DNA of 64,000 bases from Octopus sinensis (taxonomy: Eukaryota), in NCBI RefSeq assembly GCF_006345805.1, contig NC_043000.1, positions 103,292,001 to 103,356,000 of the forward strand, in the 5' to 3' direction. A program made the translations under genes and the position numbers. How positions within the stretch are numbered: the stretch's first letter is position 1; every line of letters starts with the position of its first letter. Positions 257 to 58,788 of the stretch are shown piece by piece. Below the pieces are notes generated by a model. That model had not been told where the DNA came from, did no database searches, and was given only the letters and a program-made list of their open reading frames with translations.

Positions 257-842
257 TTAAACTGGGTTTCTGACACCCACCTTTTTCGCCACTTCTTTCC
301 ATCTTTTTTCATACACACCTCGTAGTAAGGTCTTCTTTTCCAGCCCCATTTTGCTCTTCATATGATATCTGAAGTAAGTGAGTAAGCCGGGGCCTGAGAC
401 AAATGATCTTATTGCGACTCCTTCCATTCTTGTACGCCACATGCATTCTTTTACTACTGCAACCGTGCAGTGAAAACCTGCCTCACCTTCCTTCGAGAGT
501 CCAGTTGGCGGTATCATCTTAATCATAGACTCAGCCGACAGCTGTACTCGTCCCAGATGCGATAACACGTGTTCTGCGTAACTTATCAAGTCTGACAACT
601 GCCGACAGTGTACAAAAGCGTGCTGGACGGTTTCATCGTCCAACCCGCATCTTGGACATGTCGGTGGCACTGAAATTCCGTGCCGCGATAACTTCTCGCG
701 AACAGGTAAAGCATTCCTATTACACTGCCAGGCCAGGGATCTTCGGAAATTATCCAAATACCCCGTCCTGAAAGTCTTTTTAAACAGGTTGGTAAGCTGG
801 TCTTCGTCGAACCCCAGAGCCCCTCCTAGGACGTCGTCTTTG
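257..842 (-). pseudogene. 5'-truncated L1/Tx1-like LINE ORF2 C-terminus (zf-RVT CCHC knuckle)
   Basis: Open frame KDDVLGG...LAWQCNRNALPVREKL...CPRCGLDDETVQHAFVHC...WRTR matches the W-x4-ALP and C-x2-C-x8-H-x4-C pattern at the end of L1/Tx1 ORF2; stop at 257. Confidence 0.85.
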
Positions 843-14149: not shown

Positions 14150-14584
14150 CACACATACACGCGTGCACACACGTAATATTATATCTGTGAGTCTATGTAT
14201 GTATGTATGAATGTGAGTGGGCGCACGCGTGCGTATAGTGTGTAGATAGCTTCAATATGTCACGCACTTGCGTGTATTTTTAGCTGCACAAAAATGCTTG
14301 TATGACTCAGCTTGAAAGAGCCGGGTATAGATGCTCACACTTTTACAATGTCATCATTACCATCATCACCAAAACTACCAAAGCTCTCAAACCTCCTACC
14401 CTACCCCGCTCCTGGTCATCGTGGTTGTCATTGTCCTCACGATCAATAATTCGTAGTTTTCCGCTTGATAGGTGATACGGCGGATGAAACACTCACTGCC
14501 ATATTCATGAGCGGATTACTGCAAACATATATCCACAAGGTGTCAAATGCAGGCAAGCTTATACCCTATATTTTCCGGTTCGAA

Positions 14585-15535
14585 GGCGGTGCGCTGGCAG
14601 AAACGTTAGCACGCCAGGCGAAATGCTTAGCGGTATTTCGTCTGCCGCTACGTTCTGAGTTCAAATTCCGCCGAGGTCGACTTTGCCTTTCATCCTTTCG
14701 TGGTCGATTAAATAAGTACCAGTTACGCACTGGGGTCGATATAATCGACTTAATCCGTTTGTCTGTCCTTGTTTGTCCTCTCTGTGTTTAGCCCCTTGTG
14801 GGTAGTAAAGAAATAGGTATTTCGTCTGCCGCTACGTTCTGAGTTCAAATTCCGCCGAGGTCGACTTTGCCTTTCATCCTTTCGTGGTCGATTAAATAAG
14901 TACCAGTTACGCACTGGGGTCGATATAATCGACTTAATCCGTTTGTCTGTCCTTGTTTGTCCTCTCTGTGTTTAGCCCCTTGTGGGTAGTAAAGAAATAG
15001 GTATTTCGTCTGCCGCTACGTTCTGAGTTCAAATTCCGCCGAGGTCGACTTTGCCTTTCATCCTTTCGTGGTCGATTAAATAAGTACCAGTTACGCACTG
15101 GAGACGATATAATCGACTTAATCCGTTTGTCTCTCCTTGTTTGACCTCTCTGTGTTTAGCCCCTTGTGGGAAGTAAAGAAATAGGTATTTCATCTGCCGC
15201 TACGTTCTGAGTTCAAATTCCGCCGAGGTCGACTTTGCCTTTCATCCTTTCGTGGTCGATTAAATTAGTACCAGTTACGCACTGGGGCCGATATAATCGA
15301 CTTAATCCGTTTGTCTGTCCTTGTTTGTCCTCTCTGTGTTTAGCCCCTTGTGGGTAGTAAAGGAATAGGTATTTCATCTGCCGTTACGTTCCGAGTTCAA
15401 ATTCCACCGAGGTCGACTTGGCCTTTCATCCTTTCGCGGTCGATAAATTAAATAGCAGTTGCGTACAGGGGGTGATCTAATTGACTGGCCCCTCCCCATA
15501 AATTTCAGCCATTGTGCCTAGATTAGAAAAGAATA
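14585..15535 (+). mobile_element. Family B SINE carrying a tandem array: head + 4 x 184-bp units + divergent terminal unit
   Basis: Units start at 14632, 14816, 15000, 15184 and 15368; TSD ATATTTTCCGGTTCG at 14568-14582 and 15533-15547. Confidence 0.97.
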
Positions 15536-15902
15536 TTTTCCGGTTCGTTGTCTGGTTAATGATTGCATACTGCTGGTAAATGCGACTGAGAAATACAAAC
15601 GAAAAAGCCACCACGTACAGATGACAGATAAATTTCGTCCCAATTACTTTTAGAAAAGGGAAACATGTAAAGAAGATTATCTAGAAACACTAAGACAAAA
15701 TAAGGGACGATATGGAAATGGCAGGAATGATTATGATCATAAGTTTACTCAGTGAGGGCCGACCTGCGGTTAATGGAAGCAATAAGTATGGTAATACAGG
15801 ATTCACAAAATATAAATTCAGTTATCGAATCGACAACATACGAGCGTATGTTGTTTAAAGTTTATATACGTATATACATATATATATGCATATATATATA
15901 TG

Positions 15903-24586: not shown

Positions 24587-25002
24587 GATTTCAATTTTTG
24601 GCACAATTTCGGTGAGAGAGGTAAGTCGATTACACCAACCTCAGTACTCAACTGGTAAAATGGCAAAGTCGCCCTCGGCGGAATTTGAACTAAAAATTTG
24701 AAGACAGGTGAAATGCCAGGGCGAAATGCTTAGCGGCATTTTGCCCGATGTGCTAACGATTCTGCCAATTTGCCGCCTAACTGTGTGAAATAATCCTTTC
24801 TACAAAAGGCACAAGGCCTGATATTTGTAGTGGGGGAGTGTGTAAGTCGATTATATCGACCCCAGGGTGTAACTGGTACTTATTTAATCGACCCCGAAAG
24901 GCTAAGGCAAAGTCGACCTAGGCGGAATTTGAACTTAAGCAGAGACGAAATCTGCTAAGGGTTTTGTCAAGCGTGCTAACGATTCTGCCAGTTCACCACC
25001 TT
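24587..25002 (-). mobile_element. Two adjacent family B SINEs
   Basis: Two heads (ending about 24778 and about 25001); TGTGTGAAATAAT occurs left of, between and right of them. Confidence 0.85.
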
Positions 25003-26907
25003 AACTGTGTGAAATAATGCAAATAATAACATAGTCATAGCTTATAGTTGATCATGTTTCTTCGCAAAGAAATATAATCGCTTCGTGTATAGATATTCAA
25101 ATTTACAAACTGTTGTAATTCTTAACCGCTTACATGCTACAAAGAGGTATCGACACTACTCATTACTACCTACTGGTCTTGTGATTCGATACACTTAGTA
25201 TATCATTACTACCTACTGGTCTTGTGATTCGATACACTTAGTTCTACTCTGTTGAACTTTTTAAAAATAGTAAAATACGTGTAACCGATACCTTTTCTCT
25301 CTTCTTTAAAATTCAAGAAGAAATATAATAACTTCCTTAGAGATGTTCACTCCTAGGAATTGAAAATCAGGTGATTTCTATGGTTAAAGGGAAAGCTTGA
25401 TGGCCTAGACATAATATGTCGCTGGATGTTGTTACCTGGGATTATTATTTCTTGAATTATTGCAACTTCTTGAAACTTAGTCTATTACTGATGAACCGAT
25501 GAAATGGCTTCTACATTGTCGACTGAAATGCTAGAAATAGCAGCCAAATTCCCTTCAAATCACAACCCACGTGGTCTTATATGACCACGGCTTGAACACA
25601 TTTCATCATAGGCGTACTTTATCTGAGCTGGCGTGAGTTCAACCAATAAGAACAGCAACAACAACAATAACAACAACCCAGAGCATCAACAACAATAACA
25701 ACAGCAACTAGAACAGCAATAGCAACAACAACAACGACGATAATAACCACAACTACGGCAACAGCGATATCTAGAACTACTACTGCGGCTAACAAATCAC
25801 TCAACCTATTTGCATTTGCAGCGAAACTCCCCTCAATTCAAACCTTTACCTTTTTAAAAATACGAAGTACACATTAGCTAATAGTAATCCACAATGCTGA
25901 ATCAATATGGAAGAAAACACTAATAAAGAATTCATAAAGTTTGCATCGGTGTACAGGAAATGTTCACAAATACTTATTGTTCAAGTATACTGCTAACGTA
26001 TGTGACGTACTTTCGCAATGAGGCTTTTAATGTAAGGCATTATCTCGATCCAGATAGTAAAAGATATATTTGTTTACAGTCATTGTCTTCTCACCATCAA
26101 AATCTAAACGTTACATAATCTCTATATAAGTTTCTAAATCTAATCCAGTCAGCATATAGTTCAAGAAGATTCAAAGAAATGGTGGTCTGGTTTTTTGAGC
26201 ACATATTTTCATTAACTTCATTATTCCCAGACTAACTAACTTTGCATACTCATTATAAATTACGTCATTATGATGTACGATGAAATTTATAATTAAAACA
26301 GAGAATAGTATTACAACCATTTTCATTACATTTACATTTGTCAAAAGAGATGACTGTTCACTAAAAGTTGCCTGTTTCAATACCATTTATAATATGTCTA
26401 AATATTTCTGTGATGTCAATGCGGCTCTTGTTATCATCAACAAAATACAAGAACGCATATGTGTGTGTGTGTGTGTGTGCGAGCGCGTTTGCGTGTGTGC
26501 GTATGTGCGCGCACACACATAGATAGATAATACATACATAAATATACATATATACATACACACGTATATATATATATATATGACGTAAACTTCGCTAACT
26601 TTCTCTCTCTCACAGTCTTTTTTCTTGCTTTTTAAATAACACAAAGAATATGTGTGAAGATTTGCACATCTAGAAAAAGCTGTTTGGACTTCACAGCGTT
26701 GACATTTATTTGCAGATAAAATGTAAGTTTGTTGACAAGACAAGGCCACGAGCAAGGTTGGATCCCGGCAGTTTGATGGTTTAAAGGAGACCAGACAGAT
26801 ATAGGATGTTGAAGTTGGAAAGAAGCACACAAACGTTGTTGTGTGCTTTTTCCACCCACCCCATACGCACTAAACCAACCACTAAGGTAAACAACACAAT
26901 CATAATG

Positions 26908-50870: not shown

Positions 50871-51102
50871 TTTATTTCTTTACTACCCACAAGGGGCTAA
50901 ACACAGAGAGGACAAACAAGGACAGACAAACGGATTAAGTCGATTATATCGACCCCAGTGCGTAACTGGTACTTATTTAATCGACCCCGAAAGGATGAAA
51001 GGCAAAGTCGACCTCGGCGGAATTTGAACTCAGAACGTAAAGACAGACGAAATACCGCTAATCATTTCGCCTGGCGTGCTAACGTTTCTGCCAGATCGCC
51101 GC
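50871..51102 (-). mobile_element. Young monomeric family B SINE
   Basis: Near-identical to head + unit 1 of the array; short TSD CATATT. Confidence 0.93.
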
Positions 51103-52046: not shown

Positions 52047-53311
52047 TCACACACCCATACATATATACATACAGACATGTGTGTGTATGTGTGTGTGTGA
52101 ATGTGCGCCTGTGCAGTCAAGGCATGAATGGAGATGAAGAAAATAAATAAAATTAATTATGTATTAATTGGAATATTTCTCATAAGGAATGCTCAGGCTT
52201 CATAAGTTAATTGTGAGAACTTCACATCCATTAATCAACGTACGACAACACCCACACACCCACTGAAGTATATATGGAAACTTTACCTCACTGATCCTAC
52301 CCCCAACAACCAATTCTCAAATCTCTCGTCATGCACAATTTCCATAGAACATTAATCAGAGTGAAAACTTTCAGCTTTAGTTGTTTACTTTTGCTGTTTT
52401 CTTGTTCATTTGGAAATAGTATTTACCACTGAAAAAAAGGGGGAAAATTAGTATAAAATCAGTAGATTGTGAAGGCAATTCTCACAGTAGAGTATCATTG
52501 GTTTATTGTGAGAGTTATTCACATACTGTGAGATGGTATTATAACGGAAGAATTTACACAAATTGCTTTCTCGTCGTCGTACGAACAAGTCGTCACTCGC
52601 GAACGAGTATGGTTTGGTAATGCGTACCATATTTTCGCTTATTGTTTTTGGTTACTATGCAAGCATCAGCAGATATAGACACCTTCTCCAGTCTACTGCC
52701 CTTCGACCCAACGAAACATCCAGAAAATAACAACTGGAGCGAGCTAGAACTTCGCCAGCATTTGGTTTCTATTTATTTTGAGGTGAATAACTAGAGCAGC
52801 ATGAAATGAAGTGCCTTGTTCAAAGACACAATTCACCTCACAATCCATAAATTGAACCCATGATATTATGATTGTGAGTCGAACACACTAACCACAAGAA
52901 AACGCTCCTTCATTTTCTGGTTGGGTTCATTTACAAATTGTTCTGGTCATTAGCTGTCCTTTGATCTTTGCAATATGATAATCACCAATACACCAATAAA
53001 TATTTACATTTAGATAAGGGAACTTCAATTTGGTCGTTTGATACACTAGAATTAGCAACCAAAATCTCATTCGAATCATATGCTGTTATCTTAAAAACAG
53101 AAATAATATATGGAACAACGCTAGAATGTTTTTGATCTCATCTTCTACGTCCGCCATTCGACCTGCAAGAAATAACTGTCATTTCTCCTAACTTCCCTTA
53201 ATTATGTATTTCACCCAGCCTAAAATAAATTGGCATCGTATTTTTGTAATAAACAATTGATTGTCAGAAAAAGAATGAACAAAAAAACTGTCATTTCTCT
53301 CTTGTGCTACA

Positions 53312-53542
53312 TATTTCTTTACTACCCACAAGGGGCTAAACACAGAGAGGACAAACAAGGACAGACAAACGAATTAAGTCGATTACATCGACCCCAGTGC
53401 GTAACTGGTACTTAATTTATCGACCCCAAAAGGATGACAGGCAAAGTCGACCTCGGCGGAATTTGAACTCAGAACGTAACGGCAGACGAAATACGGCTAC
53501 GAATTTCGCCCGGCGTGCTAACGTTTCTGCCAGCTCGCCGCC
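53312..53542 (-). mobile_element. Young monomeric family B SINE
   Basis: 18-bp TSD TTTCTCTCTTGTGCTACA at 53294-53311 and 53543-53560. Confidence 0.95.
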
Positions 53543-54627
53543 TTTCTCTCTTGTGCTACAGTCCGAGCTTTGTGATTAAAGAATCAATCCGAGCCATCAG
53601 ACAGCTTAACTTTCATATAGCAAGGCAAACTTATTACACTTATTTTTAATTTTTTAATTTTTTTGTGGATCGGTAGAATCGTAAAAGCAACGGACAAAAT
53701 GCGTCGCGGCATTTATTCGTTTTTTGTGTGTTTTGAGTTCAAATCCTGACGAAGTCACTTCTGCTCTTCATCCCTCCGATGTCGACAACATAAAGCACTA
53801 ATGAAATCTCGGGCGTTGATTTAAATGACTAACCCTTTCTCCCTAAATTCAAAGTCTTGTGTCTATATAAGAAACAATCATTTGCCGAAAGCGGACCATC
53901 ACAACTATTTCATTTCCATTATGAAGAATACATTGCATGTACTGTTTAGCAACAAGAGTAATAGGTAGTCAAGATCTTTAAGGATAAATAGTGCACCAGA
54001 GAACTGAAACCAGATTGCAAACTTAGTCTGAGCTGGAGGAACGCAGCCATCAATTCTATTTGTAAATCGCAGATCCTTTTCCTCATCAAGCCACTGAGGT
54101 TAGTATCAAAAGACAGCATGAATTTCCATTTTCTTTCTCATTTGGGGGCAAAATGAATCAAGAGAATTTGGGATTCCATTTAAATACAGTATCAGTTTCG
54201 TCACGTCATAAGGGAAATATGCCAAGACTTTCCATAGATTTTCGTTCAGAATCTGTTAGCGAAATTTAATACCTGCCTCACAGGAAGTCGTCTGTTTTAT
54301 TCGTCAGTCGTCTTCATCATATTTTGACACTTAACGAAGGAGCCTGTACAAGGTCACCCGAACTGCTAACAATAGCAACCAAATCTTCTTCAAATCACCC
54401 CCCACCAAAACTTCTGCTTTAAATACAAAAAGGTCACATTGGCTAATGCAGTCGTACCTCCTCCCTAAAAATATTATAACATCTGTGGTCAGGGTTGACT
54501 TGGGACTAAGCATCACCACCAACTTCTCAGAAAATTGTTACGAGACGTGTGTGTACGTGTGTATATCATTGGTTTCTATATGTGTGTGAGTACATACACC
54601 ACACACACGCACATAGACACACATACA

Positions 54628-58474: not shown

Positions 58475-58788
<314 letters not shown>

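Follow-up and report, generated by a model that had tools for sequence, protein, structure and literature searches.

The window, a stretch of 64,000 nucleotides from Octopus sinensis (contig NC_043000.1, positions 103,292,001 to 103,356,000 of the forward strand), contains at 14568..15547 on the plus strand a tandem array of SINE units enclosed by one exact 15-bp direct repeat (14568..14582 and 15533..15547), the sole flanking repeat of at least 10 bp. The left target site duplication (TSD), the start of which resembles the flanks of elements with tail variant B, would belong to a founding tail-B element. It is followed by a 48-bp head (14584..14631), by four units of 184 bp ending in tail A (14632..14815, 14816..14999, 15000..15183 and 15184..15367) and by a fifth unit of 165 bp (15368..15532) carrying the different tail B. 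TRF reported a period of 184 with 4.6 copies. In all four joints, the end of a tail is fused to the base of head position 49, the main insertion site, where unit 1 (U1) also starts; the joint between U4 and U5 carries one tail substitution. A second self-insertion site known from the fetched loci, position 16, lies at 14599 and is unused in this array. The 3′ part of tail A (14771..14814, repeated in units 2 to 4) is related to LINE tails by similarity. A preliminary description of the sequence had proposed this layout, and both its boundaries and the use of a single head base at every joint were confirmed.

U2 is identical to U1, U3 carries five private changes, U4 differs from U1 at four sites, one of which (position 9) is shared with U5, and U5 shows 18 differences from U1 within the first 120 bases in addition to its different tail. 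The first 16 bases of U4 and U5 are identical. These counts agree with those given before; the accompanying statement that divergence is lowest at the head end holds for the identical U1 and U2 and for U5 as the most diverged unit, but the series 0, 0, 5, 4 is not monotonic. At unit position 70, U1 to U4 carry a T, U5 carries a C and both monomers in the window carry a G, so that an allele common to U1-U4 and absent from the monomers indeed exists. U5 has the body and tail of the older tail-B subfamily, with B-type alleles at 94, 97 and 110, and is likely the resident element that was invaded.

The head had been regarded as a Pol III head, but it contains only the A-box-like half (motif at approximately 14595-14605), whereas a B-box-like motif is located inside every unit (14657-14669 in U1). 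Both motifs were named by eye from the tRNA-promoter consensus and would be those of a putatively tRNA-derived head; ARAGORN returned 0 genes and Rfam 0 matches. The SINE may resemble octopus OR1/OR2/OK or members of the CORE or Meta superfamily. Runs of four T are absent from the inside of the array and from the stretch between the head and 15536, the first one downstream of the head being contained in the right TSD (15533..15547). Two tail-A monomers lie on the minus strand of the window. For the one at 50873..51102 no TSD of at least 9 bp was found, whereas the one at 53294..53560, with a C at position 49, is flanked by an 18-bp TSD (53294-53311 and 53543-53560); only the latter therefore conforms to the earlier claim of monomers with their own TSDs.

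Genome-wide, the 27-nucleotide tail-to-core joint was detected in 20,803 exact copies compared to 0 for the reversed control and is thus not due to chance. Tail A occurs in two types, with 73,561 matches for the T-type (the last letter of the pattern excluding C) and 19,014 for the C-type, and tail B has 9,302. The first 100 matches listed for each, all from the start of one contig, were inspected. For the T-type, reading by eye showed that 58 were joined to the core start, while 16 had other G-starts (GGTA in 8 of them), 23 TA-type starts and 3 A-starts. The C-type ends, also read by eye, included one at position 49, five at position 16 and 40 AG-starts, and tail B was followed by the core start in none of its first 100. 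Among the fetched loci, a sample enriched for site 49, SINE sequence follows 220 of 368 tail-A ends; the junction is at position 49 in 188 and at position 16 in 18, and the remaining 14 are mostly only a few bases away from one of these two positions. C-type tails account for 3 of the 188 joints at position 49 compared to 14 of the 18 at position 16, so the tail variant predicts the site.

Out of 126 complete arrays, 108 begin with a head; two units are present in 65, three in 38, four in 12, five in 5 and seven to ten in 6. The elements are short, dispersed, of high copy number and flanked by TSDs, which were found for 49 of the 86 tail-A elements and for 56 of the 110 with tail B, and they share the 3′ tail with a LINE, as is characteristic of SINEs. 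The TSDs of tail-A elements in unique DNA (49/86) are mostly 13-18 bp long, and 26 of the 49 begin exactly after the tail. Since a GGTA or AGAA start is found inside the TSD in unique DNA, it represents target DNA. A single TSD surrounds the whole array in 29 of 50 B-ended and 12 of 31 A-ended arrays with a TSD. The same core also contains an antisense GGTA site with 660 exact tail-A insertions, 57 of the 100 listed being by the same tail type; it is used approximately 55-fold less than the sense site, the count for which includes local duplicates. Antisense tail-A insertions at this fixed site form inverted structures (for example L076, L335, L391 and L450). As a further peculiarity, a six-base repeat of the tail end precedes the core start at joints in L006, L087, L156, L356 and L426-L429, the last four loci belonging to one long array that has the repeat at most of its joints.

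Several loci carry footprints of self-insertion. In L445, a 16-bp copy of the core start is present on both sides of a full-length unit, and the same arrangement was recognized in degraded form in L013, L016, L163 and L417 (five of ten pattern matches including L445). An old head is thus retained, and the full-length new element behind it has the core start on either side, which is the order of a non-homologous 5′ join. Invaded B units differ from the consensus in 3.8% of their first 13 bases compared to 11.9% in B monomers, and A-type alleles at positions 14-16 were found in 5 of 20 invaded B units versus 0 of 31 B monomers. A-type heads occur in 6 of 30 versus 0 of 37 cases. Later recombination inside the arrays could also account for A-type alleles at the start of last units and for A-type heads.

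A LINE family, the tail variant of which was noticed in L009 and L435, inserts at the same base. It yielded 141 exact tail matches, and in about 98 of the 100 listed the core start follows. Out of 30 loci, 29 contain ORF2, and all 29 of these are at site 49. The SINE is less specific, since 42 of the 100 listed T-type tail ends lie outside SINEs. All 20 LINE copies fetched are full-length (4.9-5.5 kb), 19 behind a SINE head and one behind an existing joint, and in these 20 the 5.35-kb element has core positions 1-17 repeated on its left. The LINE has two ORFs; ORF1 contains a zinc knuckle and ORF2 an APE endonuclease, a reverse transcriptase and a zf-RVT domain, and its best matches among solved structures are L1 endonucleases and L1 chimeras. 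We presume that it is Tx1-like and refer to it as L1/Tx1-like. The LINE copies are mostly less than 1% diverged, whereas the SINEs that host them are 2-21% different from the window copy, so that the hosts were present before the LINE. Positions 15-17 on the left of the LINE are constant, whatever the right copy reads, which suggests that the 5′ end of the LINE itself carries target sequence and joins by homology. An insertion at site 49 splits the A-box-like from the B-box-like motif of the host, and the LINE 5′ end bears a constant three-base stretch of SINE core. In the window itself, 260..838 (minus strand) represents a fragment of an L1/Tx1-like ORF2 C-terminus which is 48% identical to the site-49 LINE.

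The 3′ ends of several L1/Tx1-like LINE families are similar to tail A. Its identity with the tail of the site-49 LINE is 81% over 41 nt, and SINE and LINE share one target position. Mobilization of the SINE in trans by the LINE proteins would be in keeping with this, but three findings argue against so simple a pairing: the tail identity of 81% is limited, most SINE units (approximately 4%) are older than the LINE copies, and the tail of a TATC-tailed family is equally close (36 of 42 identical, score 64 compared to 22 ± 3.6 for shuffles), although that family ends in TATC repeats. Two pattern searches for a LINE with the exact tail of the SINE found only SINE variants. The TATC-tailed family has 7,303 tail matches genome-wide, and the window contains a short 3′ end of it at 58639..58674 within a (TCTA)n run (compare L304-L333); in related LINE families the 3′ end consists of ATT or TATC repeats, and a run of the respective repeat follows. 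An ATT-tailed L1/Tx1-like family was rejected as a partner, as its tail scored 45 compared to 24.5 ± 3.8 for shuffles and none of its 30 loci was at site 49. The best reverse transcriptase matches were likewise rejected, the chromosome-borne (ATT)n- and (GA)n-tailed families sharing neither SINE tail. The 30 best matches on small contigs gave no SINE match and were set aside; these families (L181-L210) are absent from the fetched chromosome matches and possibly represent foreign DNA or a special compartment.

The arrays are ordered by age, the last unit usually being of an older subfamily. Tail B was internal in 0 of 165 cases and in 0 of 100 in a separate tail-B listing, and 34 of 93 elements picked by tail B alone have A units upstream. 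In 30 B-ended arrays, the first unit was less diverged than the last in 23 cases, more diverged in 4 and tied in 3 (p = 3e-5). Over core positions 61-118, last units showed a divergence of 0.095, close to that of B monomers (0.097), compared to 0.045 for first units and 0.035 for T-type monomers. In addition, the first unit was less diverged than the second in 14 versus 4 of 21 arrays (p = 0.02). In A-ended arrays, the last tail is of the older C-type in 18 of 27, and among the inner tails 104 of 106 are T-type. The unit before the last one shares private alleles of the latter at positions 18-30 (6 of 16 in dimers and 9 of 23 in longer arrays; controls 1.0 and 1.3), whereas the first unit of longer arrays does not (1 of 23). 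No correlation was found between head divergence and last-unit divergence. At the window locus, contigs of a relative (X6), whose flanks are approximately 6% diverged, extend from the two flanks into the head and into tail B, which shows that the outer element is old. No empty allele consisting of head and U5 was seen among the usable contigs of four runs, which are anchored in the flanks and end before the inner units, and the lower joint depth in the X6 reads is no measure of copy number.

Taken together, the older last units and the LINE at the same base with its duplicated core start point to seeding by self-insertion. We consider it probable that the stack in the window, the joint of which recurs throughout the genome, goes back to a young tail-A copy which inserted at position 49 of an older tail-B copy, followed by lengthening through in-register local duplication. 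Genome-wide, the likely origin of the arrays is the site-specific insertion of new elements into copies already present, the second head being lost through homology at the 5′ join. The endonuclease of the L1/Tx1-like LINE lineage, which itself is found almost only at position 49, would nick a resident SINE. The SINE RNA, presumably recognized by its LINE-like tail, would be read through into the core start, as no stop of four T is present, and this extension might pair with the nicked strand and prime reverse transcription. Homology with the duplicated core start, or else with the head, would then serve to join the 5′ end of the cDNA, either at insertion or by later recombination, so that exactly one headless unit would be added and the oldest element would remain last. 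Every joint or head would again be a target, and unequal exchange between units could add near-identical copies. Self-targeted insertion with homologous 5′ joining, one of three models put forward in the preliminary description, is thus supported at the level of the family.

The role of the RNA end in this scheme depends on the first base of the joint. G is found in 20,803 SINE joints and C in 184, while intact head sites number 36,173 and C occupies position 49 in 46 of 100. Units starting with C account for 0 of 109 non-first units but for 16 of 60 first units. LINE joints as listed comprise 54 with C and 44 with G; their base matches the upstream copy, left and right agree in 20 loci, and near-identical LINE copies carry either base. 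The avoidance of C by the SINE, in contrast to the LINE which takes both, points to the read-through end of the SINE RNA. These data are compatible with an extension of the RNA which pairs with the target or overwrites it, as are the much rarer use of the antisense GGTA site, the relation between tail variant and site and the consensus-like starts of invaded B units. Alternatively, most SINE insertions may have taken place before C-type heads arose, which would produce the same contrast, and later recombination may have contributed to the pattern. Separate clades of C- and G-type LINEs were tested and rejected: in a tree from which 4 of the 30 loci were left out (one SINE, three rearranged or old), clustering was mild (5 changes compared to 8.3 shuffled; 14 and 7 of 500), and it arises because older copies are C. 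The head variant itself (compare 53480-53510 in the window) combines a change from T to G at position 44 with G to C at position 49, by which the head stem would gain one pair; approximately 46% of intact head sites are of this type, which is nearly absent from SINE joints. Joining driven by the stem-loops proposed for head and joint was rejected, as their folds as DNA were no better than those of shuffled sequences (z = −1.30 and −0.22). The fold of the read-through RNA was slightly better than shuffles (z = −1.94) and is not counted as evidence.

It is quite possible, if somewhat less likely than not, that the SINE carries a heritable landing address: the read-through RNA would end in its own core start, copied from the last landing site, and would pair with or overwrite the nicked target, so that self-insertions create both templates and targets, the LINE cutting at the same base. 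The C-type head would then be an escape variant closed to the SINE and open to the LINE. A rather less probable explanation is that the LINE enzyme alone chooses the site, the tail variants reflecting different LINE subfamilies and the RNA end playing no role. The agreement of the LINE joint base with its target in 20 loci and the near-identical copies with either base speak for it, as does the available text on Tx1 elements, in which target choice is ascribed mainly to the endonuclease (PMC4494074). Against it speak the SINE joints, which avoid C approximately 100-fold even though the LINE accepts it, the lack of C among the 109 non-first units, and the invaded B units, whose first 13 bases are nearer to the consensus than those of B monomers.

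With regard to the origin of U1-U4, the shared rare allele T70 argues for one template, and local duplication is the likely process. The T70 haplotype has 245 copies in the genome, and among the 100 listed, in-register neighbours were observed only at the window array. T70 as a subfamily mark was rejected, as 30 loci were mixed and had neighbours without it. That in-register duplication did occur is demonstrated by chimeric units: L356 and L168 combine a B start with a U1 body, and L008 is likewise chimeric. Varying joints, previously named as a sign of unequal crossover, are the wrong test, since unequal crossover keeps the joint exact. Position 9, a CpG site with A in 15 of 88 monomers, is G in U1-U3 and A in U4 and U5. 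The G at this site and branch lengths of 0, 0, 5 and 4 match simple duplication only loosely, and the identity of U4 and U5 over their first 16 bases is compatible with either a TSD or an in-register breakpoint. The identity of U1 and U2 and the homogeneity of the window array may also be an effect of assembly polishing.

For a homogeneous minority of arrays including U1-U4, multimers might have been formed in one step, either by a reverse transcriptase jumping from an inner to the 3′ core start or by copying of a multimeric RNA. Among 21 arrays of 3-6 units, neighbours in 5, the window array among them, are near-identical (at most 10 sites apart, compared to a between-array median of 20), L180 consists of five near-identical A units in a perfect 17-bp TSD in unique DNA, U1-U4 form a star, and the window array lacks a run of four T. 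In the other 16 of the 21, neighbours are about as unlike as random pairs (median 20 differences). The chimeras of B start and A body in L356, L168 and L008 are expected from duplication at the DNA level, and long arrays show nested blocks of shared alleles, those of 7-10 units sharing private alleles, both of which argue against a single step and leave it an unlikely origin. The multimeric master gene proposed earlier fails on age for B-ended arrays and could apply to a minority only.

It is very improbable that whole arrays arose in a single event by template switching, in which reverse transcription of a tail-B RNA would stall at the head hairpin and jump to tail-A RNAs, or that a fixed composite master was copied as a whole. 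The single TSD around many arrays and the frequent A-type heads would be explained in this way. In contrast, last units equal B monomers in age and first units share the young age of A monomers, old heads remain upstream with a duplicated core start, the young LINE occupies the same base in SINEs of varied age, and the hairpin required for stalling folds no better than shuffles. The parts of the arrays are also not of equal age from one master, as in dimeric or composite SINEs of the Alu type. Rolling-circle reverse transcription of a 184-nt circular RNA, the first of the earlier models, would account for the exact unit length and joint and for the T70 common to U1-U4, but it is not supported and highly improbable: Rfam gave 0 matches at E ≤ 5 and no hammerhead core motif was found on either strand (HDV-like folds being covered by Rfam only), 108 of 126 arrays start with a head which the circle lacks, units are of mixed age and subfamily with older last units and unlike neighbours in most short arrays, and two joint sites are tied to tail variants. 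Retrozymes likewise form tandem genomic units of a small RNA element; the octopus arrays differ in having no ribozyme in each unit, in carrying a non-unit head and in consisting of units of mixed ages rather than like units of equal age.

Target-specific Tx1-type LINEs with a SINE passenger, as well as 3′ pairing in priming, are already known in principle. As far as described in the available text of Kojima 2015 (PMC4494074), the crocodilian SINEU families and Tx1-Mar LINEs resemble the octopus pair in that a SINE and a Tx1-type LINE share one target in an abundant repeat and that successive insertions give rise to tandem copies; the discussion there also names co-transcription with the target as a factor which strengthens specificity. 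SINEU elements, however, target another element (Mariner-N4_AMi) and their tandem copies sandwich the TSD, whereas the octopus SINE targets its own head, and its arrays consist of headless units, are polarized by age and offer a new target in each product. In the blood clam Scapharca broughtonii, arrays of the form TSD1-(SINE)n-TSD1 have a first unit with a head, later units truncated at one position of the head and a single TSD; inner units are also 3′-truncated, the arrays comprise approximately 3% of copies, unequal recombination is proposed, and the available part of the paper describes neither self-targeting nor a joint partner LINE (PMC11481361).

The sSat arrays of squamates are also composed of tandem sub-SINE units with a longer terminal unit, long arrays being more homogeneous, but according to the sections available their seeding is ascribed to duplication by unequal recombination and unit limits vary (PMC10702118). 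The octopus arrays share the tandem sub-SINE units, the extended terminal unit and the local homogenization, although the window array, with three middle units only, is below the sSat working limit of four as given in that text (PMC10702118), and they differ in that a single site is used for seeding, that short arrays have arisen independently in tens of thousands of places and that the last units are older. For RTE-related SINEs, the accessible text reports that the 3′ end of the RNA correlates with the TSD start and proposes priming by the RNA end, which there is a microsatellite-like repeat (PMC6007223); in the octopus SINE, this end would be its own core start, obtained by read-through from the previous self-insertion. 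Further related literature, as far as its available text goes, includes PMC13282606, PMC4824008, PMC4758252, PMC11194090, PMC3747384 and PMC7265360. Our literature search yielded no description of a SINE that targets its own head, nor of these arrays in octopus.

If the proposed scheme is true, copies of its own family serve the SINE as safe landing sites, and this on a very large scale (58 of 100 sampled young tail ends and 34 of 93 older elements invaded), and a LINE lives almost only inside that SINE. This would provide a direct and countable route from a retrotransposon to a tandem repeat, with the order of ages built in. The C/G base, the antisense site and the two tail variants with their two sites would represent a natural experiment in which the choice made by the endonuclease can be told apart from pairing of the RNA primer. 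In this genome, the chimeras would be mistaken for separate families in repeat libraries and age plots. A different arrangement was observed at 24590..25013 (minus strand) of the window, where two old copies of the SINE family lie in tandem with the same 16-18-bp repeat between and flanking them, a TSD-SINE-TSD-SINE order distinct from that of the main array.
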